Source: Candidatus Nomurabacteria bacterium
GTDB lineage: Bacteria > Patescibacteriota > Minisyncoccia > Phycocordibacterales > UBA9973
NCBI GenBank assembly: GCA_023267215.1
Contig: JAHFNS010000002.1
Span: 256,892-320,891 of the forward strand
Reading direction: 5' to 3'
DNA: 64,000 nt
The notes under the pieces were generated by a model. The model was given only the letters and a program-made list of their open reading frames with translations. It made no database searches and was not told the origin of the DNA. This document shows, one piece after another, positions 326-63,474 of the stretch. Every line of letters starts with the position of its first letter. The stretch's first letter is position 1. A program made the translations under genes and the position numbers.

Positions 326-2494
326 TTGGTGGGTAATAAAAATATGAATAAGAAAGAATTCAGTGTAGAAATTGGTGGTAAAACATTGACCGCTATTTTC
401 TCAGATTTAGCAGAACAAGCACATGGATCAGTCATGCTTAAATATGGTGACACTATAGTGCTAGCGACAGCTTGTATGTCCAAAGACAAGCAAGCAGGTT
501 TGGGATTTTTTAATCTGACAGTAGACTATGTAGAGAGATTTTATGCTGCTGGAAAGATTTTAGGTTCACGTTTTATGCACAGAGAAGGAAAGCCATCAGA
601 AGATGCTGTCCTTGCTAGTCGTGTTATAGACAGAACCTTGCGTCCACTTTTCGATCAATCTATTCGCCATGCTGTGCAAGTCATCACCACTGTCATATCT
701 ATGGGTGAGGATGACTCTACAATACTTGCAGTAAATGCTGCATCTTTGGCCCTCGCAGTATCAGACATACCATGGGCAGGGCCTATCGGCTGTGTGCGCA
801 TTGGGAAATACGATGACGATAATTTAAAAATAAATCCTGCGCAAATTTTAAGACAAGATGATTCTAAATATAAATACGATCTTACTATCTGTGGTAAAAA
901 TGGAAATATAAATATGATAGAAGCATCAGCTCATCAGACTAGTGAAGATGAACTCGAAGAAGCATTCAAAAAGGCAAGTGAAGAAATAACAAAACTTGAA
1001 GACTTCCAAAAGAAGATAGTTGCTGAGATAGGTGTCGCTAAGAAGGTAATAGAAAAAGAAAAAGTTAGCGATGGATCAGTAAAATTATTTAATGAAAACA
1101 TTTTACCAAAGATGGAAAGTGCACTATTCGCTGGTGCTGGCAAAAAACCCATAGATGAACTTCACAGTGTTTGGAATAAATTGGTGAAAGACACTTACCC
1201 TGACAGGACCGACTTTGCCCCCGAAGATGCTCTCTTTGACGATACAGAAAATGATATGTTGCACGAGAAAGCTATTCACGAAAACAAACGTGCAGACGGT
1301 AGGGCGATGGATGGACTTCGTGCTCTCTATGCACAAGCTGGAGGACTTTCTACAATATTGCATGGTTCTGGAATTTTCTATCGTGGAGGAACTCATGTCC
1401 TATCTGTTCTTACTCTAGGTGGACCAGAAGAGAAACTTTTAGTAGACGGAATGCAATCAAAAATTGAAAAAAGATTTATGCATCATTACAACTTTCCACC
1501 TTACTCAGGTGGAGAAGTAGGCCGTATGGGAAATACAAATCGCAGAGAAGTCGGACACGGAGCACTAGCTGAAAAAGCTTTAGCTATGATATTGCCAAGT
1601 GTCGAAGAATTCCCTTACACTATGCGTATAGTTTCTGAATCAATGGCATCAAATGGTTCTACTTCTCAAGCTTCTATCTGTGCTTCAAGTCTTGCCCTTA
1701 TGGACGGAGGTGTGCCTATAAAAGCACCAGTCGCTGGTATTGCTATGGGTCTCATGATGGAGATGACCTCACCCCAGCCCTCTCCTTATAAAGGAGAGGG
1801 GGAAATTCCAAAATATAAAATTTTGACTGATATCCAAGGACCCGAAGATCATCATGGAGATATGGATTTCAAGGTGGCAGGCACGAGAGATGGCGTCACA
1901 GCTATTCAGCTTGATGTGAAAGTGGAAGGAGTACCAATAAAAATATTAGGTGAAGCCATGAGACAATCCAAAGCCGCTAGACTTTCTATCTTAGATACTA
2001 TAGAAAAAGAAATTCCAAAATCTCGTTCCGAAATTTCTCCAAACGCTCCAAAGATATTGATTATGAAAATCAAACCAGACCAGATAGGTATGGTGATAGG
2101 CGGTGGTGGAAAAACCATTAAGGATATAAAAGAACGTTCAGGTGCAGAAATAACTATTGAAGATGATGGTACAGTATATTTGACAGGGAAAGATGATAAA
2201 GCAGAAAAAGCTAAAAAAATAATAGAAGAAATGACCCATGAGTACAAAGTTGGGGAAGTTTTGAAAGGAGAAGTCGTGAGAATTGCAGACTTTGGAGCTT
2301 TCGTCGCCTTAAATCCTTTTACTGATGGTATGGTGCACATTTCTGAGATGGCCCCATTTCGTGTAGAGCGAGTCATTGATATAATAAAGGATGGCATGAT
2401 AGTGCCAGTGAAGATAATAAAAGTGGACAGAGAACAAGGTAAAATCAGTTTGTCTATCAAAGAAGCCGATCCAAATTTCTTTAAGAAACCTTAG
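326..2494 (+). CDS. pnp: Polyribonucleotide nucleotidyltransferase (PNPase)
   Basis: 722 aa with two RNase PH-like cores (GDMDFKVAGT motif) and C-terminal KH plus S1 domains (GEVLKGEVVRIADFGAFV). An alternative start is at 344. Confidence 0.9.
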   Translation: MVGNKNMNKKEFSVEIGGKTLTAIFSDLAEQAHGSVMLKYGDTIVLATACMSKDKQAGLGFFNLTVDYVERFYAAGKILGSRFMHREGKPSEDAVLASRVIDRTLRPLFDQSIRHAVQVITTVISMGEDDSTILAVNAASLALAVSDIPWAGPIGCVRIGKYDDDNLKINPAQILRQDDSKYKYDLTICGKNGNINMIEASAHQTSEDELEEAFKKASEEITKLEDFQKKIVAEIGVAKKVIEKEKVSDGSVKLFNENILPKMESALFAGAGKKPIDELHSVWNKLVKDTYPDRTDFAPEDALFDDTENDMLHEKAIHENKRADGRAMDGLRALYAQAGGLSTILHGSGIFYRGGTHVLSVLTLGGPEEKLLVDGMQSKIEKRFMHHYNFPPYSGGEVGRMGNTNRREVGHGALAEKALAMILPSVEEFPYTMRIVSESMASNGSTSQASICASSLALMDGGVPIKAPVAGIAMGLMMEMTSPQPSPYKGEGEIPKYKILTDIQGPEDHHGDMDFKVAGTRDGVTAIQLDVKVEGVPIKILGEAMRQSKAARLSILDTIEKEIPKSRSEISPNAPKILIMKIKPDQIGMVIGGGGKTIKDIKERSGAEITIEDDGTVYLTGKDDKAEKAKKIIEEMTHEYKVGEVLKGEVVRIADFGAFVALNPFTDGMVHISEMAPFRVERVIDIIKDGMIVPVKIIKVDREQGKISLSIKEADPNFFKKP
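1767..1806 (+). repeat. Copy of the GC-rich REP-like element (CCTCACCCC..CCCTCTCCTTATAAAGGAGAGGG) embedded in-frame in pnp
   Basis: Near-identical to the intergenic copies at 13473-13546, 14893-14981 and 61691-61786. It encodes the extra TSPQPSPYKGEGEIPK segment just before the conserved LTDIxGxEDHxGDMDFK motif, at the position where E. coli PNPase has only KEGDNYVV. Confidence 0.6.
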
Positions 2495-2564: not shown

Positions 2565-4280
2565 ATGCAAATCGAAACTAAACAATGCCAGAATTGCAAA
2601 AAAGACTTCATAATAGAAGGAGAAGATTTTAAATTTTATGAAAAGATAAAAGTTCCTCCACCGACTTTTTGTCCGGAATGCAGAATGCAAAGACGTCTGT
2701 CATATAGAAATACTCATTCATTTTATAAAAAGAAAGATAGTTTTTCTGGTAAAGACATTATCTCGGCTTATTCTCCAGATAAAAATCTAGTTGTTATTGA
2801 TAGGAAAACATGGTGGAGCGATGATTGGGATCCGCTTGATTATTGTGCTGATTATGATTTTTCTGAACCATTTTTTTCTCAATGGGCGAAGTTGCGTGAT
2901 AAATTTCCTTTACAAAATCTTATGCAGACGAAGTCTGTAGATAGTGACTATTGTAATGTAGCAGAAGAAAGTAAAGATTGTTATTTAATATCTGCTTCTT
3001 GGAAAAATGAGAGAGTTTTTTATTCTGATGCTATTACAGAAGTAAAAGATTCAATGGATTTGCATGTTGTCCACAGAACACAATTTTCCTATGATGATTT
3101 AGTTTGTGCAGATTCCTATCAGCTTTTCTACAGTCAAGATTCTCATAACTGTGTAAATTCGTATTTTCTTTATGATTGCCGAAATTGCACAGACTGTTTT
3201 ATGTGTTCAAATTTGAGGAGTAAGAGTTATTGTTTTTATAACAAACAGCTAACCAAAGAAGAATATCAGAAAAAAATAAAACAAATGGATTTAGGTAGCC
3301 ATTCTTTTATTCAAGAAAAGAAAAAAGAATTTGAGAATTTAAAACTAAAAGCTATTCATAAGTATGCTCATATTGTAAATTCAAGTAATATATCTGGTGA
3401 TAATATTGTGAATGCAAAGAATTGCCACAATTGTTTTGACTTGATGAGCGAACTCCAAGACTGTAGTTATGCTTTTTGGGGTGTACAGGGTAAGGATATA
3501 TTTGATTGTGGCCCAGGATTTGGAGTTGTCGAATTAATGTATGAAACTTTTGATGCTGGCCCAGGCGGAAAAAATATTTTATTTAGTCATAGTATTCATT
3601 CTTCAGAAAGCGTGGAATACAGTTTTTACTGTCACGACTCTTCCAATCTTTTTGCTTGTTTTGGTCTCCGCTCTAAACAGTATTGCATTTTAAATAAACA
3701 ATACAAGAAAGAAGAATATTTTAAATTGAGAGAAGAAATCATTAAACACATGAATGAAATGCCTTATATTGATAAAAAGGTGAATGCGTATAAATATGGG
3801 GAGTTTTTTCCAGCAGAGCTTGCACCTTTTGCTTATAACGAAACAGTAGCACAAGATTATTTTCCAATGGAGAAAGAAAAAGTTCTTGAAATGGGCTTGT
3901 CTTGGAAAGATTCTGAAACACGTAATTATAAACCGACTCTTTTATCTAAAGATATTCCAGATAATATAAAAAATGTGCCAGACAGCATAAAAAATGAAAT
4001 TATAGAATGTGAACATCAAGGTAAATGTAAAGACCATTGCACTACTGCTTTTAAAATTATTCCAAATGAATTAATCTTTTATCGAAGGTTTAATATTCCA
4101 ATACCGCATCTTTGCTATGGTTGTAGGCATTACGGGAGATTAAAAGAAAGAAATCCGATGAGGCTTTGGCACAGAAAGTGTATGAAAGATGGCTGCACTA
4201 ATGAATTTGAGACTAGCTACTCCCCAGACCGCCCTGAGATTATTTATTGTGAGAGGTGTTATAATCAGGAGGTATATTAA
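2565..4280 (+). CDS. Cysteine-rich (~31 Cys) putative zinc-ribbon protein, hypothetical
   Basis: N- and C-terminal CxxC..CPEC / CYGC..CERC ribbons that resemble each other (F.I..E.FY..I.P.P..C..CR). An internal duplicated motif C..C..LRSK.YC..NKQ..KEEY. Confidence 0.6.
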   Translation: MQIETKQCQNCKKDFIIEGEDFKFYEKIKVPPPTFCPECRMQRRLSYRNTHSFYKKKDSFSGKDIISAYSPDKNLVVIDRKTWWSDDWDPLDYCADYDFSEPFFSQWAKLRDKFPLQNLMQTKSVDSDYCNVAEESKDCYLISASWKNERVFYSDAITEVKDSMDLHVVHRTQFSYDDLVCADSYQLFYSQDSHNCVNSYFLYDCRNCTDCFMCSNLRSKSYCFYNKQLTKEEYQKKIKQMDLGSHSFIQEKKKEFENLKLKAIHKYAHIVNSSNISGDNIVNAKNCHNCFDLMSELQDCSYAFWGVQGKDIFDCGPGFGVVELMYETFDAGPGGKNILFSHSIHSSESVEYSFYCHDSSNLFACFGLRSKQYCILNKQYKKEEYFKLREEIIKHMNEMPYIDKKVNAYKYGEFFPAELAPFAYNETVAQDYFPMEKEKVLEMGLSWKDSETRNYKPTLLSKDIPDNIKNVPDSIKNEIIECEHQGKCKDHCTTAFKIIPNELIFYRRFNIPIPHLCYGCRHYGRLKERNPMRLWHRKCMKDGCTNEFETSYSPDRPEIIYCERCYNQEVY

Positions 4281-9984: not shown

Positions 9985-10551
9985 ATGAAAAACTCACATC
10001 AAAAAAAAATAGAATCTTTCTACGGAAAAAATAAAAGAATGCCAACGTATTCTGAGATGATGGATCTTTTTGGTTTCAAATCTAAGAATGCTGTATTTAA
10101 AATTGTAAATAAATTGATCGAAGGTGGGCTCGTATCGAAAGATCATCTAGGGAGATTAGTGCCGACAGAATCATTCGGAGAAATCCCAATGCTTGGCTTC
10201 GTGACAGCTGGGCTTCCTGCATCTGTCGAAGAAGAAATGACAGACACAGTAAATCTAGATGACTTTTTGATTAAAAACAAACCACTGACTTATATGCTGG
10301 AAGTTGATGGGGACTCCATGATAGATGCACATATAGAAAAAGGGGATATGATTCTCGTCGAGAAGGCGAATACCGCCAGGGACATGCAGATAGTTATAGC
10401 GGAAGTAGATGGAGAGTTTACGATGAAATATTTTAGAAAGGTTGGGAACAAGTCTTGGCTCGAACCTGCTAATAAAAATTATAAACCCATTTACCCGACC
10501 CAAAGCTTGAATGTGGTAGCTATCCTCAAAGCTGTGGTTAGGAAATACTAA
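9985..10551 (+). CDS. lexA: LexA repressor (S24 peptidase)
   Basis: Winged-HTH N-terminus, an AG cleavage site (VTAGLPA), catalytic Ser (DGDSM) and Lys (KYFRK). Confidence 0.85.
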   Translation: MKNSHQKKIESFYGKNKRMPTYSEMMDLFGFKSKNAVFKIVNKLIEGGLVSKDHLGRLVPTESFGEIPMLGFVTAGLPASVEEEMTDTVNLDDFLIKNKPLTYMLEVDGDSMIDAHIEKGDMILVEKANTARDMQIVIAEVDGEFTMKYFRKVGNKSWLEPANKNYKPIYPTQSLNVVAILKAVVRKY

Positions 10552-12834: not shown

Positions 12835-13437
12835 CTAAGTTTTAATAGCAACAGAGGCTTTGGATTTCGTGACTATTTCGTCGATAATGCCATATTTTTT
12901 GGCTTCTTCTGCATCCATAAAGAAATCTCTTTCCACATCCTTTTCTATCTGTGCGAATAGCTTGCCTGTATTTTTAGCTAGAATTTTATTTAAATTGTCT
13001 CTTGTTTTTAGAATATGTTTTGCTGTGATGGCTATGTCTGTGGCTTGACCTTCTACTCCACCCAATGGTTGATGGATCATTATTTCAGCATTTGGCAAAA
13101 TGAATCTTTTACCTTTTTTACCAGCAGATAAGATAATGGCTGCGCCAGATGCTGCTATGCCGACACAAAAAGTGGAAATGTCTGGACGGACATGGTTCAT
13201 AGTGTCTACTATGGCGAGAGTGGAAGTGACAGAACCGCCAGGGGAATTTATGTAAAGCGAAATATCTTTCTTTGAATCTTCGGATTCTAGGAATAAAAGC
13301 TGTGCGATGACGATGTTTGCCACGTTGTCATCGATAGGTCCGGCTAAGAATACTATTCTTTCTCTTAAAAGACGGGAATATATATCATAAGCTCTTTCGC
13401 CGAACTGACTTTTTTCTATAACGGTTGGGATTAACAT
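12835..13437 (-). CDS. clpP: ATP-dependent Clp protease proteolytic subunit
   Basis: [11 protein letters not shown] and IMIHQPLGG Ser-His-Asp triad motifs. Confidence 0.9.
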
Positions 13438-13472
13438 GATTGTATTATATGTTAAATTTATAATTTTTTCAA

Positions 13473-13546
13473 ACCCCCTAAATCCCCCTTGTCAGGGGGC
13501 ATACCTCACCCCCTGACCCCCTCTCCTTATTAAGGAGAGGGGGAAT
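13473..13546. repeat. GC-rich multi-hairpin REP-like element (CCCCCTTGTCAGGGGG / CCTCACCCC / CCCCTCTCCTTATTAAGGAGAGGGGG)
   Basis: Three consecutive GC-rich palindromes in an otherwise AT-rich intergenic region. Same family as 1767-1806, 14893-14981 and 61691-61786. Confidence 0.65.
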
Positions 13547-13570: not shown

Positions 13571-13789
13571 ATGAAAAATTTGAGCATTGTTCACAAAATA
13601 ATAGGAATAAGTTTCATAGTGGTGGGGTTAATCTCTTATGTCTTTCCAGTTCCGGGGAGTACTGTCCTCGTTGTATTGGGTTTTGTCTGGTTAATAGGCA
13701 AAGATAGGTCTTTGTATTTCTTGAAAGAAATTTTAGGTAAGAAAATATTCAAATTATTAAAAATAAAAAAGGTAGTAAAAGAAATATAA
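13571..13789 (+). CDS. Small hypothetical membrane protein
   Basis: ORF with one or two predicted TM helices; no motif. Confidence 0.3.
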   Translation: MKNLSIVHKIIGISFIVVGLISYVFPVPGSTVLVVLGFVWLIGKDRSLYFLKEILGKKIFKLLKIKKVVKEI

Positions 13790-13792
13790 AAT

Positions 13793-14173
13793 ATGTTTTT
13801 AAATATTATTTTAAATTTTTTTATTGGTTTGATTGTCGGTCTTGTTTTGGAATATATCTATAGATCTCACGAAAACAAAAGATTAGTAAAACCAAAATTA
13901 ATAGATGCACAAATGTATGCCCTGATAGGAGCATTTTTAGCTCTTCTTAGTTTTTTTGAAATGCCATTAGTCTATAAAGTAGTACTGATTTTTATAGTTC
14001 CGACATTAGTGGAATTTTTGACTGGTTATTTAGATTTGAAAATAAAGAAAGTCAGGTTGTGGAATTATTCTAAAGAGAAATTTAACTTTATGGGCTTGAT
14101 TTGCCTACGTTTTTCCTTATATTGGTTTCTGATTTCCTTAATTTACTACTACTATTTGATGCCTAGGTTTTGA
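13793..14173 (+). CDS. Small hypothetical membrane protein
   Basis: ORF with multiple hydrophobic helices; no motif. Confidence 0.3.
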   Translation: MFLNIILNFFIGLIVGLVLEYIYRSHENKRLVKPKLIDAQMYALIGAFLALLSFFEMPLVYKVVLIFIVPTLVEFLTGYLDLKIKKVRLWNYSKEKFNFMGLICLRFSLYWFLISLIYYYYLMPRF

Positions 14174-14841
14174 TCATCTTCCCGAGGGTTATCCTCGGGA
14201 AATTCACTAAAATCATCCACAATAGTGCTGTAATCAATAATGTTTGTTTCCTCAACCGGGAATAGTTTAGGATTTATGATTTTATAATCTGAAGAGAGAT
14301 ATTCTTGCAAGCTCGAATATGGATATTCAGAAATAAATTTTTTAAGTTGGTTTAAAAAACTTTTTGATTGAGTTTTCCAATTTGAATTTTTTAGTTTTGC
14401 TGGATTTAAATGGATATATGCATAAATATACCTTAAATATATATCATCATCTATATATTCTGATTTAAAAGTTCCTTGGAAAAGAGCACCTACTCTATCA
14501 TTTTTTTTATTAAAATACATAGAATAGCCAGTTTGAAGTTTAAGCATAAATTTTGAAACTCCTCCATCCACAAGGGGAGTAAGTAATAAATGAAAATGAT
14601 TTGGCATTAAACAATATGCTCCAATGGCCACGAGTTGTTCCCCTCGGTCCTGTTTGAAAATTTCTTCTATTGAGATAGAACCAAAATCTTTTATATGTAG
14701 AGGTTGGTCGTTGTTTGCGATATAAAGTAATATTAAAAATCTTTTATATTCAGAAGAATTTTGAAATATTTTTCGTTTCTCTACGCCACGATTGTAAATA
14801 TGGTAGAATTCTTCTACCTCAAGTTTTGTTTTTCGTTCCAT
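14152..14841 (-). CDS. IS200-like / REP-associated (RAYT) Y1 HUH transposase
   Basis: HUH motif (NHFHLLL) and catalytic Tyr motif (YIHLNPAK). The probable ATG is at 14841; the ORF track extends to a TTG at 14859. The C-terminal codons overlap the 14179-14201 palindrome. Confidence 0.7.
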   Translation of the reverse strand: MERKTKLEVEEFYHIYNRGVEKRKIFQNSSEYKRFLILLYIANNDQPLHIKDFGSISIEEIFKQDRGEQLVAIGAYCLMPNHFHLLLTPLVDGGVSKFMLKLQTGYSMYFNKKNDRVGALFQGTFKSEYIDDDIYLRYIYAYIHLNPAKLKNSNWKTQSKSFLNQLKKFISEYPYSSLQEYLSSDYKIINPKLFPVEETNIIDYSTIVDDFSEFPEDNPREDDQNLGIK

Positions 14842-14884
14842 ATAATAATTATAGCACAAAATTTCCCGAGGGTTATCCTCGGGG
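14179..14884 (-). mobile_element. RAYT/IS200-like unit bounded by two copies of the palindrome CCCGAGGGTTATCCTCGGG (14179-14201 and 14864-14884)
   Basis: Identical 19-bp palindromes sit at both ends of the transposase gene, which lies between the normally adjacent tig and clpP. Confidence 0.5.
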
Positions 14885-14892
14885 AGTTTAAT

Positions 14893-14981
14893 TGTCAGGG
14901 GGGGGATACCTCACCCCTAACCCCTCTCCTTAATAAGGAGAGGGGGAAAGTTTCTCTACTGAGAAACTGGGGTGAGGTGGA
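14893..14981. repeat. GC-rich multi-hairpin REP-like element
   Basis: TTGTCAGGGGGGGG..CCTCACCCC..CCCCTCTCCTTAATAAGGAGAGGGGG..GGGGTGAGG. Same family and orientation as 13473-13546. Confidence 0.65.
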
Positions 14982-16091
14982 TTAATTTTGATTTTCTAGA
15001 AATTGGAAAACAGCTTCATTTGTAAGCACATTTTCGGCATGCATTTGAGCTCTTTCAAGGTCTGCATCTTTATAATGTTCGAGTATAGCTGCAACTTCTT
15101 TGGCTACTTGTTCAGGATCTGCTGCTATTTTTTCATCTGCAGCTATTTTGTTTAAGACTAGCGCGAACTTGGCTTTTTTTTCTGCATCATTTCTAAATTC
15201 TTTTCTCAAATCTTCCACAGTTTTACTCAAATGTTTTAGATAATCTTCAAATTTTAAACCCATCTGAGTGATGTCGGATTCCATACGATATAAAATTTTA
15301 TCGAGTTCTACTTCAATTAAAATTTCTGGGAGCTCAACTTTCAAATCATCGATTATTTTTTCAACGATTTTCAATCTAGTTTTTTCTTTTAGTTGGTTTC
15401 CTTTTTCTAATTTTATATTTTCTTTTAGTTTTGTCTTGAAATCCTCTACGTTTTTGAAGGGCCCTAGAGCTTGGACGAATTCATCATTAAACTCTGGTAA
15501 TTCGGCTTCTTTTGGTTCTTCGTGCTTGTGTTCCTCACCTTCTTTATGTACGTGTTCAGCCTCGTCTCCACCCTTCGCTAAAGCTTCGGAGGACGTAGCT
15601 GCCATGTGAATTTTTGGAGCGCGGGATTTTCTAATGTCCATGATTGTGTCTTCAACTTCTTTTTCTGTCACTTCAGTATTTTTTTCTTTATCTGTTATTC
15701 CAGAAATTATTTTTTTAGCAATATTTTTATAATCCGGCAATGTCATTTCTGGAAGGGTGGCGGTTTTTATTTTAAATCCTAACGGATTCTTGCGGGCAAG
15801 TTTGGTGATAGAAATTTCTGGGCGACTGATTGCGTCAATTTTATTTTCTTCTAAAATCTTTGGATAATGTTCGGAAAGAGCCATTTCTGCCATCTCTCCT
15901 AATATTTGTGCTTCTGGAATTTTAGAAAGTAAAACACTCTCAGGGACTTTTCCCTTACGAAAACCATCTATTTCTAAATTCTCACCGATTCGTTTTAAAG
16001 CCTTGTTAAAATAGGTCTCAAAAACCTCTGCGTCAATTTCTCCTTCAATCTCCACCTCACTTTTTGGTAATTTGTTGATTTTTATTTGCAT
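14982..16091 (-). CDS. tig: Trigger factor (compact, 369 aa)
   Basis: The N-terminal ribosome-binding domain (GFRKGKVP) and overall profile resemble trigger factor, and it is the neighbour of clpP. Confidence 0.8.
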   Translation of the reverse strand: MQIKINKLPKSEVEIEGEIDAEVFETYFNKALKRIGENLEIDGFRKGKVPESVLLSKIPEAQILGEMAEMALSEHYPKILEENKIDAISRPEISITKLARKNPLGFKIKTATLPEMTLPDYKNIAKKIISGITDKEKNTEVTEKEVEDTIMDIRKSRAPKIHMAATSSEALAKGGDEAEHVHKEGEEHKHEEPKEAELPEFNDEFVQALGPFKNVEDFKTKLKENIKLEKGNQLKEKTRLKIVEKIIDDLKVELPEILIEVELDKILYRMESDITQMGLKFEDYLKHLSKTVEDLRKEFRNDAEKKAKFALVLNKIAADEKIAADPEQVAKEVAAILEHYKDADLERAQMHAENVLTNEAVFQFLENQN

Positions 16092-61480: not shown

Positions 61481-61681
61481 ATGAAACAAGATTATTTTTC
61501 AGCAAACAATATAAAATACATAGACTATAAGGATATTGATATTCTAAAAAGATTTTTAAATCCAAATGGTAAAATTATGAGTCATAAACGTACAGGACTT
61601 ACAGCTAAAAATCAACGAGCTTTAGCTTTGGCTGTTAAAAATGCACGATTTATGGGGTTACTTCCTTTTGTCGCAAGATAA
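61481..61681 (+). CDS. rpsR: 30S ribosomal protein S18
   Basis: YIDYKD..LLKRF....GKI...RTGL.AK.QR.L..A.K.AR...LLP. Confidence 0.9.
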
Positions 61682-61690
61682 AAAACACAA

Positions 61691-61786
61691 AACCCCTCCC
61701 AACCTCCCCTTGTCAGAGGAGGAATTCACCTCTCCCCAGCCCCTCTCCTTCTCAAGGAGAGGGGTAAAGGGGTGAGGTAGGGGGTT
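61691..61786. repeat. GC-rich multi-hairpin REP-like element
   Basis: CCCCTTGTCAGAGGAGG..CACCTCTCCCCAGCCCCTCTCCTTCTCAAGGAGAGGGG..GGGGTGAGG. Same family as 13473-13546. Confidence 0.6.
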
Positions 61787-61809: not shown

Positions 61810-62382
61810 ATGCTTCAATATAACGAAATAAGAGAGAAAAAAATAATAATTTACAATGATGAACCTTGCGAAGTTGTAGATTCGCATGTTGCACGTACTC
61901 AACAAAGAAAACCTCAGAACCAAGTAAAATTAAAAAGTTTAATTTCTGGTAAAACTATTGCAGCCACTTTTCATGTTTCTGATACAGCCGATGAAGCAGA
62001 TATAGAAAAACGTGAAGTTAAATTTTTATATCACAACAGAGGTGAATATTGGTTTTGTGACATAGATAATCCAAAAAATAGATTTGAACTTGATTCTACG
62101 CTTGTTGGTGATGCAGGGAAATTTTTTAAAGAGAATGGTACTGTCGTGGCTCTCGTTTGGGACAATGATGGTGAAGAAAAAACAATAAAAATAACTCTAC
62201 CCATCAAAATGGAATTCAAAGTAAAAGAAGCACCCCCAGCAGTCAGGGGAGATACTTCTAAAAGTGGAAATAAAATAATTACTCTTGAAAATGGAACGAC
62301 CTTAAATGCTCCAATGTTTATCGAAGAAGGAGATGTCATTCGTCTCAATACTGAGACAGGGGAATACGTGGAAAGAGTTTAG
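61810..62382 (+). CDS. efp: Elongation factor P
   Basis: KOW-like N-terminal domain with the conserved KPQNQVKLKS region (the Lys modification loop) and two OB domains. Confidence 0.9.
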   Translation: MLQYNEIREKKIIIYNDEPCEVVDSHVARTQQRKPQNQVKLKSLISGKTIAATFHVSDTADEADIEKREVKFLYHNRGEYWFCDIDNPKNRFELDSTLVGDAGKFFKENGTVVALVWDNDGEEKTIKITLPIKMEFKVKEAPPAVRGDTSKSGNKIITLENGTTLNAPMFIEEGDVIRLNTETGEYVERV

Positions 62383-62433: not shown

Positions 62434-63474
62434 TTAAATTTCTTCAGAAAACTTTTTGCGGATTTCTTTTAATATTTGTTCTGCTATCTTTTTATTTTCT
62501 TTCAAGAATGTGCGAGTGCTATCGTAGCCTACTCCTAATTTCACTTTTTCCACTTTTTCCCCGACTGGTATATAGAAATATGAATTACCAGTTTTTTCTA
62601 TAATTTTGAATTTCTCTCCCAATGCAATGATTTCTCCTTCTTTAGAGATTCCTTCATTATAAATGATATCAAATTCTGTTTGTTTAAATGGTGCAGCTAC
62701 TTTATTTTTTACTACTTTCACACGCGTACGAGAGCCAACAATATCTTCACCTTTTTTAATTTGAGCAATTTTTCTTATATCCAGACGAACAGAGGTGTAG
62801 AATTTCAAAGCTTTACCTCCAGGAGTGGTTTCAGGATTACCAAACATCACACCTATTTGCATTCTAATTTGATTTATAAATATGACGACAGTTTTTGATC
62901 TTGAGACTATGGCTGTTAGTTTGCGGAGTGCTTGAGACATGAGTCTTGCTTGTTTGCCGACATGATAAGCTCCCATATCTCCCTCTATTTCATCTTTTGG
63001 GGTGAGGGCAGCGACAGAATCAATGACGATAACATCGATCTTGCCTGTGCGGACGAGACTCTCGACAATTTCCAATGCTTGTTCACCAGTATCTGGTTGA
63101 GAAATAAGTAATTGATCAATATTCACTCCAAGTTTTTTTGTATAATCTGGATCCATGGCATGTTCGGCATCTATATATGCACAGACTCCTCCCAATTTTT
63201 GAGCTTCAGCTACGATATGTAAAGAGAGGGTAGTTTTTCCTGAAGATTCTGGTCCGAATATTTCAATAATTCTTCCGCGAGGAATTCCACCGACACCGAG
63301 TGCCATATCTAGCCCGATGGATCCTGTCGGTATTGTATTAATATCTACTTTTGGTGAATCACCGAGCTTCATAATAGAACCTTCACCAAATTTTGCTTGG
63401 ATTGCTTTCACAGTATCATCAAGCAAAGATACTCCCATAGTTTTATCTTCCTTTTTTATTTTTTTCTTTTGCAT
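62434..63474 (-). CDS. recA: Recombinase RecA
   Basis: Walker [10 protein letters not shown], the L1/L2 loops and the conserved core. Confidence 0.95.

Follow-up and report, generated by a model that had tools for sequence, protein, structure and literature searches.

The window analysed here, a 64,000-nt stretch of a Candidatus Nomurabacteria contig (JAHFNS010000002.1), is AT-rich (about 29-40% GC) and carries near its left end the pnp gene (344..2494, plus strand), which, together with a short GC-rich repeat that it contains, is the subject of this report. The gene encodes a polynucleotide phosphorylase (PNPase) of 716 amino acids, in which Pfam recognises two RNase_PH domains, KH_1 and S1, and which matches PNPases in the PDB with E-values down to 3e-164. 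The original prediction, a reading of the sequence by itself, had placed an in-frame palindromic repeat within this gene, and alignment with relatives bears this out. Compared with the insert-free loci L121-L125, the window gene carries an open inserted unit of 39 nt (13 codons), TSPQPSPYKGEGE, at 1766..1804 of the plus strand. The indel falls exactly in the middle of a six-codon loop, which reads YEN|DNK in insert-free relatives and MEM|TM|IPK in the window, TM standing for the triplex motif described below. The left flank, codons M-E-M (1757..1765), is homologous to Y-E-N/S, and the right flank, I-P-K (1805..1813), to D-x-K. From 1766 the codons read ACC TCA CCC CAG CCC TCT CCT TAT AAA GGA GAG GGG GAA ATT CCA AAA, giving TSPQPSPYKGEGEIPK, residues 475-490 of the protein. 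The nearest relatives (703 aa) are shorter by exactly 13 residues, S. aureus PNPase shows a 14-residue gap, and the E. coli chains have 75 residues at the site where the window protein has 89, that is, 14 fewer, as proposed. The conserved catalytic motif DHHGDMDFKVAG (1847..1882, residues 502-513), just upstream of which the repeat had been located, begins 15 residues downstream of the insert.

By a TM unit we mean a homopyrimidine/homopurine hairpin accompanied by a third block that mirrors its purine arm. All parts of the pnp unit are given on the plus strand. The third-strand block ACCTCACCCC, the complement of GGGGTGAGGT, occupies 1766..1775 and encodes T-S-P; in an alignment of seven sequences (the four copies in the window and three from other genomes) it is invariant except for one base in one copy. 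Loop 2 (AG, 1776..1777) includes the third position of a Gln codon (CAG/CAA), the residue being Q, H, R or E among proteins. The codons for P-S-P plus the initial base of a Tyr codon make up the pyrimidine arm CCCTCTCCTT (1778..1787), which forms a 10-bp stem with the purine arm AAGGAGAGGG (1791..1800), itself encoding part of K-G-E-G. Between them lies the hairpin loop ATA (1788..1790), which varies as ATA, ATG or ATC, and as GAAA(A) in L209 and L210. A GGAA tail (1801..1804) closes the unit and is also present in the intergenic copies of the same repeat family (GGAGAGGGGGAA).

The insert is very probably translated as a tolerated, Pro/Ser/Gly/Glu-rich loop extension of 13 residues. The nine pnp copies for which DNA was obtained never carry a stop codon and always have a length that is a multiple of three. 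Of the three intergenic copies of the window, by contrast, the two with loops ATT and AAT would yield TAA if read in this frame, and this is consistent with translation of the insert. That the ribosome hops over the segment, or that it is removed from the mRNA, could be imagined from a GC-rich hairpin (-20.6 kcal/mol) within an AT-rich gene, superficially similar to the byp elements discussed below. We consider this very improbable, given that the loop variants avoid stop codons, that the would-be take-off and landing codons are unmatched (ATG...ATT, AAG...ATC, AAC...ATT) and that in-frame, stop-free copies exist in eight other protein families.

In an AlphaFold2 model of moderate quality (mean pLDDT 72), beta-strands span residues 464-476 and 488-494, and residues 476-487 between them have pLDDT below 50 and no secondary structure. 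The insert is thus predicted to extend the tip of a beta-hairpin in the second RNase PH domain. Solved actinobacterial PNPases have up to 13 extra residues at the same spot and human PNPT1 has 7 more; since loop length varies in this way among PNPases, an extension here is expected to be tolerated.

The unit had also been described as a mobile repeat colonising an essential gene. A dispersed repeat has indeed been inserted in frame, and its mobility is suggested by presence/absence among relatives and by dispersal; the insertion is, however, not a recent one in this genome. No target-site duplication is visible at the flanks GAGATG|...|ATTCCA or in the eight other pnp genes, and the unit lacks the combination of terminal inverted repeats and target-site duplication that characterises MITEs (miniature transposable elements with inverted repeats). 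Likewise, no transposase was found for the TM unit, the open reading frames (ORFs) of the window not having been screened for RAYT.

The triplex-motif family and its spread

The hairpin core CCCTCTCCTT-N3-AAGGAGAGGG has four exact matches in the window (1778, 13519, 14922 and 61741) and none in 100 shuffles. The four-nucleotide hairpin spacer given in the original prediction has no match in the window, the true loop being 3 nt. A repeat search unites the four copies in one family (D12), with 89-96% identity over 27 nt, and the seven-sequence alignment has 29 invariant columns, found only in ACCTC.CCCC, CCCTCTCCTT and AAGGAGAGGG. The similarity of the pnp copy to the others does not fall to chance level but persists in formal alignment and shuffling, and all three other copies lie between ORFs, as had been claimed.

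On the minus strand (1766-1800), the pnp copy reads CCCTCTCCTT-TAT-AAGGAGAGGG-CTG-GGGTGAGGT, the canonical purine-motif order of C arm, G arm and G-rich third strand. It has 10 Watson-Crick pairs and two loops of 3 nt each, and its third block obeys the purine-motif code at 9/10 triplets. TMs are defined by a pyrimidine stem, a complementary purine stem and a third block with G.G-C, A.A-T or T.A-T triplets antiparallel to the purine stem, with stems of 6-15 nt containing at most one mismatch and loops of 1-6 nt; by this definition the pnp copy is a G/C-rich intrastrand TM of the class II purine motif (Holder 2015). TMs are further described as dispersed and multicopy, with stems more conserved than loops, and so is the present family, whose invariant columns are confined to the three blocks. 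Of the earlier label, a REP-like (repetitive extragenic palindromic) dispersed GC-rich palindrome, the dispersed repeat stands, with four copies against none expected, but the name REP gives way to TM because the third block ACCTCACCCC mirrors the purine arm.

Homopyrimidine/homopurine hairpins were gathered from all fetched loci blind to any third strand. A perfect 9/9 mirror-code third strand lies at most 50 nt away from 46% of the hairpin sides, compared to 2% in a reversed-sequence control. Variant hairpins are paired with matching variant third blocks: GGAGAAGGG with GGGATGAGG, AGGGGGAGG with GGAGGGGGT, GGAGAGGGA with AGGGTGAGG and GGGAAGGGG with GGGGATGGG, at loci such as L042:7917, L056 (minus strand), L204:5413 and L206:11084. 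The third block co-varies with the hairpin by the triplex code, a natural covariation over three strands. Judged by these sequence features, 1766-1804 is a genuine unit of a dispersed GC-rich intrastrand TM family resembling BoxC, PIT and TMECO.

The intergenic copy at 13503..13545 (plus strand) comprises a left third-strand block and a 12-bp hairpin, follows the triplex code at 10/10 positions on the minus strand, and lies between ORFs 12835-13437 (minus) and 13571-13789 (plus), with the hairpin CCCCC-TTGTCA-GGGGG as its upstream neighbour. The other two are two-sided, with GGGGTGAGGT at the right, and fold as nested stems. The copy at 14908..14978 (plus strand), made of ACCTCACCCC, the hairpin, a second small hairpin and GGGGTGAGGT, belongs to a composite of 126 nt at 14860-14985 (folding energy -68.8 kcal/mol, z -7) and is surrounded by ORFs 14152-14859 and 14982-16091, both on the minus strand. 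The copy at 61728..61778 (plus strand), with ACCTCTCCCC, the hairpin and GGGGTGAGGT, is part of a composite at 61691-61786 between ORFs 61481-61681 and 61810-62382, both on the plus strand. The composites at 14860-14985 and 13470-13512 also contain extra hairpins beside or within the TM unit, namely CCCGAGG...CCTCGGG, AGTTTCTC...GAGAAACT and CCCCC-TTGTCA-GGGGG. A terminator scan ruled out an intrinsic terminator at the pnp hairpin, which no T-run follows on either strand, and no Rfam family reached its gathering score anywhere in the window. A match to GGGGTGAGG at 62999-63007 is not a repeat copy but a chance match in the conserved AALTP segment of recA (ORF 62434-63474, minus).

A scan for the core with one genome per species returned at least 120 stretches and, among the matches listed, 141 hairpins. 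The hosts among these matches are Cyanobacteria, Bacteroidota, Chloroflexota, Armatimonadota, Nitrospirota, Ignavibacteria, several groups of the candidate phyla radiation (CPR), one archaeon and an Acinetobacter. In most of the stretches, the hairpin has on at least one side ACCTCACCCC (at the left), GGGGTGAGGT (at the right) or a variant of these that differs by one base, and the loop ATA is a minority variant among TMs generally. ORFs of at least 150 codons span 32 of the 141 listed hairpins. Eight of these 32 copies were checked; their gene products have confident Pfam domains, and the copies occur in several frames and both orientations. The Pfam match spans the repeat in a dihydrouridine synthase (Dus, L007:5271), a UvrD/PcrA helicase (L106:1124, where the copy adjoins ACGAAT-type repeats), a peptidase M16 (L073:3656) and a Ser/Thr protein kinase (L046:6196). 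The copies in a glycine dehydrogenase (GcvP, L097:1617), a FemAB protein (L040:3566), an Elp3-like radical-SAM protein (L096:6007) and the C-terminus of an M1 aminopeptidase (L033:6170) lie between domains, upstream of the best-scoring match or C-terminally. A further copy, at L112:7200, lies inside what by eye is a putative intein. In IMG/VR, 58 stretches of putatively viral or proviral contigs (L211-L268) contain the core as well, among them L212 with 5 copies in 7.3 kb; such copies could bear on the spread of the TM family between phyla. A literature search of incomplete coverage turned up no paper that describes triplex motifs in frame or CPR proteins with palindromic inserts.

Relatives carrying the insert and synonymous-site conservation

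The 120 PNPases closest to the window protein (79-88% identical) served as the comparison set. In 69 of them, GLM and YKILTDIQG are separated by a short turn of six residues, YE[NS]D.K, while 50 have an insert of any type of at least 4 residues in this loop. The TM insert, TSP.PSP..GEGE, is found in the window protein and in at least 14 other Nomurabacteria PNPase clusters, at the same codon and in the same frame and orientation. Among the matches listed in a metagenome scan with the 90-aa loop region, there were only PNPases without the TM, either insert-free or with other inserts. An assembly error or chimera that placed an intergenic repeat in pnp is suggested by nothing beyond the GC-rich, repetitive nature of the segment and is the least credible explanation of all. 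The exact window protein is recorded on three contigs with the frame intact, and the 14 other clusters come from NCBI, JGI, ENA and Logan assemblies, the products of independent projects and assemblers.

DNA was obtained for eight TM-bearing relatives, so that nine pnp genes could be compared, the window copy included. In all nine, the insert reads ACC TCA CCC CAR CCC TCT CCT TAT/GAA VAA GGA GAG GRR GAA. Among degenerate codons with an invariant amino acid, the third base is also invariant in 9/10 within the TM, compared to 31/425 (7.3%) elsewhere in pnp (binomial P 5e-10); with seven genes, the same measure gives 10/12 and 45/442, respectively. Compared pairwise, the genes have a synonymous identity of 0.83-1.0 within the TM, as against mostly 0.15-0.73 over the 30 flanking codons to either side and 0.43-0.56 across the remainder of pnp. 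The third block, ACC TCA CCC, is synonymously invariant in 9/9 genes even though it lies outside the hairpin. The positions that do vary are unpaired: loop 2 (CAG/CAA), the hairpin loop and the base just outside the stem, the one addition being an outer stem pair in L209. This pair is the sole stem change in the eight other genes, in which the third-strand block does not vary. At the protein level, nearly all replacements among the 15 proteins affect unpaired positions, Q changing to H, R or E and YK to EK, YE or YQ.

Because synonymous third positions are invariant in the TM and saturated elsewhere, the DNA or RNA itself is under constraint, and the stretch appears to be dual-constrained, as codons and as a nucleic-acid element. 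Selection on the DNA or RNA structure, rather than a copying bias, would then keep the TM intact. A peptide encoded by non-palindromic DNA in the relatives would have pointed to an ancient indel without a repeat, as the original prediction had recognised; the relatives instead encode the peptide by this very palindrome, without difference even at synonymous sites. These observations also bear on the idea that the insert is an ancient loop extension with a function in the protein, its DNA having come to resemble the repeat by coincidence or convergent evolution. As such a function would have it, the peptide is kept in 15 PNPase clusters, at a distance of 15 residues from the active-site motif. 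However, a protein function leaves unexplained why synonymous positions are conserved (P 5e-10) while amino-acid replacements are tolerated where bases are unpaired, and why 29/29 conserved stem and third-strand bases are identical in intergenic copies. Most close relatives, moreover, lack the insert, and some carry unrelated inserts there. We therefore judge a purely protein-level origin highly unlikely.

The loop bases of the pnp copies are closer to one another across genomes than to those of the intergenic copies in the same genome, which argues for orthology and not for overwriting by local gene conversion. On this sequence evidence, we favour an old insertion that is orthologous in a subset of Nomurabacteria and not private to the genome of the window.

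Insert states of the PNPase loop and competing explanations

The same loop, equivalent to window 1757-1813, holds unrelated repeat-derived inserts in sister lineages. One type, ITN.ELRI (ITNEQLRITKE), is encoded by ATTACGAAT repeats (L207:11414-11461), and another is the GC-rich ..AKSR..GEG.. type (L208:4563-4643). The first 21 nt of the latter are identical to their counterpart in L202 except for one non-synonymous change, and L202 carries a compound KSR+TM allele (L202:11414-11455). A more distant relative has a different palindrome, CCCGGGAAGAAGTCCGACTTCCCCGGGAAGTCGGACTTC, at L127:3085-3147, and short derivatives of the ITN and KSR types also occupy this loop. The PNPase loop can thus be regarded as hypervariable and cassette-like. 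Alignment, homology modelling and gene calling in metagenome-assembled genomes can be led astray by inserts of this kind, which could also serve as lineage markers.

A second indel hotspot was observed in RNase PH domain 1, at the turn RIGKY-DDDN-LKINP (residues 156-163, window about 809-835), apparently the counterpart of the turn in domain 2. Its inserts include PEGKQEASYGAG and similar sequences; in L209 (about 3466-3510) the insert is encoded by a GC-rich palindrome, CCCCGAAGGAAGCAAGAAGCTTCCTACGGGG, and in L204 (about 10470-10510) the copy has decayed.

The TM could have entered pnp repeatedly, the hairpin tip acting as a landing pad at which the TM and other cassettes were acquired independently and recently from an active master copy, always at one site and in one orientation. 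Recent arrival would explain the unchanged DNA, and at least four unrelated repeat-derived inserts are known from the same loop. Another palindromic insert sits at the equivalent hairpin of domain 1, and other CPR bacteria have the ATA-loop variant of the TM in frame within their FemAB and PcrA genes. In a pnp tree built without the loop region, the nearest neighbours of TM-bearing sequences often differ in insert state, with bootstrap values of 91-100%. P0074 is nearest to P0089 (ITN type) at 10.9% amino-acid distance, the nearest other TM being at 14.2% (bootstrap 98%); P0057 is nearest to P0080 (ITN type) at 10.6%, with the nearest other TM at 12.5% (92%); and P0102 is nearest to P0098 (no insert) at 11.0%, with the nearest other TM at 12.5% (91%).

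Several points count against the favoured reading, that of a single old insertion. The TM-bearing PNPases do not form a clade, and insert states are intermingled in the tree: P0001 (TM) has as its nearest neighbour P0005 (no insert) at 11.9%, the nearest other TM being at 18.4%, and P0083 (TM) has P0091 (KSR type) at 7.6%, the nearest other TM being at 10.9%, both with 100% bootstrap. Since the TM-bearers are not a clade, one old insertion requires later exchange of alleles or cassettes. A check for such recombination found flanking synonymous identity at background level and flanking residues too conserved to show tracts. We know of no mechanism by which TMs spread. The placement in a loop rests on an AlphaFold2 model whose mean pLDDT is 72, a moderate quality. 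Holder et al. (2015, PMC4666352) found TMs to have no link with mobile elements; triplex formation in vivo has gone undetected in E. coli.

On the side of exchange, two TM-like positions among clade-diagnostic residues upstream of the loop, about 0.07 by chance in our estimate, are weakly suggestive of recombination. The insert-free sequences are not deletion products of TM alleles, because they keep the ancestral-looking turn. No close pair of DNA sequences differing in insert state was present among the fetched loci.

Repeated recent insertion is at odds with the observation that 15/15 copies share position, frame and orientation, although at least 3/6 frames are free of stops and copies in other genes stand in either orientation. 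In every TM allele, the loop flanks have moved away from the ancestral YE.D.K, and they differ from one allele to another, which speaks for age; the ATA loop is but a minority TM variant; and no target-site duplication is present. We consider this explanation unlikely. One origin followed by later exchange is favoured over site-specific insertion because position, frame, orientation and loop bases are common to the pnp copies, while a TM is also viable, as other genes demonstrate, in different frames and in either orientation.

Overall, we regard it as probable that a TM unit lies in frame in the pnp loop as an old, orthologous and dual-constrained element. The complete unit, mobile or copyable, would have inserted into the middle of the six-codon beta-hairpin turn of the second RNase PH domain, where the ribosome would read through it. 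The enzyme, in a loop whose length is variable among PNPases, would tolerate the 13 added residues. The insertion would be old and inherited in a subset of Nomurabacteria, its three blocks staying synonymously unchanged while the gene around them became saturated.

A more far-reaching idea, which we offer as a doubtful but conceivable extension, is that the pnp TM is a dual-coding element kept for its nucleic-acid form and that the two PNPase hairpin tips are landing pads for cassettes exchanged between lineages. Possible nucleic-acid roles include a DNA triplex or hairpin in replication or recombination, and an RNA hairpin influencing how the mRNA that encodes this 3'-5' exonuclease of the cell decays or is translated. 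Were the landing-pad part true, some site-directed mechanism would have to write short palindromic repeats into the coding DNA of many phyla. TM repeats of the BoxC/PIT/TMECO kind have been known for thirty years with no demonstrated function, and the pnp copies amount to a natural selection experiment. Within a gene, each base of a copy can be set against the saturated synonymous sites on either side, whereas constraint is unmeasurable in intergenic DNA.

Other features were noted in the window and in related genomes. Directly downstream of pnp, a cysteine-rich ORF of 571 residues (2565-4280) has no Pfam family on record, and in L208 a gene of similar size without a Pfam match follows pnp. 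Between 24311 and 31187, long direct repeats of 120-288 nt (families D1-D5, 76-97% identical, spaced 306-2085 nt) have the look of gene segments in several copies or of a protein rich in repeats. Among related CPR genomes, housekeeping genes can contain inteins: an S-adenosylmethionine synthetase with an intein and LAGLIDADG domains is present at L201:14909-17215, and a PcrA/UvrD with an intein at L106:833-4228.

Comparison with known triplex and palindromic repeats

Intrastrand TMs have been described as BoxC, PIT elements and TMECO (Hoyne and Maher 2000, 2002; Holder et al. 2015, PMC4666352). The present family shares with them three consecutive blocks that follow G.G-C, A.A-T and T.A-T triplets. 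The core is also nearly identical (GGAGAGGG ... GGGTGAGG), the dispersed copies are numerous, with stems far more conserved than loops, two-sided (palindromic) arrangements are frequent, and cyanobacteria as well as proteobacteria are among the hosts. The consensus of TMECO in E. coli is given there as CCCTCNCCC-N3-6-GGGNGAGGG-N3-GGGNGAGGG (PMC4666352). The blocks of the pnp copy each match it at 8/9 positions, one triplet column being T-A.T here as opposed to C-G.G; the stems here are 10-11 nt long, and loop 2 can be long and contain another hairpin. In E. coli K-12, TMECO is reported in that same text to be "always located intergenically" (PMC4666352), whereas the pnp copy lies in frame inside an essential gene, and its host is a CPR bacterium, a group that the available text does not mention for TMECO. 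Folding into a triplex as single-stranded DNA in vitro, by circular dichroism and nuclear magnetic resonance, is known for TMECO only. From its sequence, the pnp copy is a variant of the TM family and not TMECO itself.

REPs and REPINs (PMC3116915) resemble the family in being short GC-rich palindromes, mostly extragenic, with many copies and composite arrays; they differ in being species-specific and in lacking a mirror-repeat third block, whereas the TM core is identical across phyla. ERIC, Correia and cyanobacterial MITEs sometimes lie within ORFs, creating fusions or added peptides (PMC10969869). These too are small non-autonomous repeats sometimes found inside ORFs, but MITEs exceed 100 bp and have terminal inverted repeats and target-site duplications, none of which is seen here. 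The byp elements of Magnusiomyces mitochondria and T4 gene 60 involve GC-rich hairpin inserts that the ribosome skips, for which matched take-off and landing codons are needed. Like them, the pnp unit is a short GC-rich hairpin insert in AT-rich coding sequence; unlike them, it is open, a multiple of three in 9/9 genes, and flanked by unmatched codons.

The closest precedent for in-frame TM copies is the Rickettsia palindromic elements (RPEs; Ogata et al. 2000; reviewed in PMC10969869), which are about 150 bp long and restricted to Rickettsia. RPEs lie in frame in unrelated housekeeping genes and are translated, the extra peptides being judged compatible with the fold, and they also occur intergenically (PMC10969869). 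The likeness is that of an in-frame palindromic repeat in protein-coding genes with further copies between genes. RPE peptides add an estimated 30-50 residues, while the unit here, at 39 bp (13 residues), includes a third block of the triplex type, belongs to a family of many phyla and resides in a CPR host. Translated palindromic repeats in housekeeping genes may extend beyond Rickettsia to several phyla, CPR bacteria, cyanobacteria and Bacteroidota among them.

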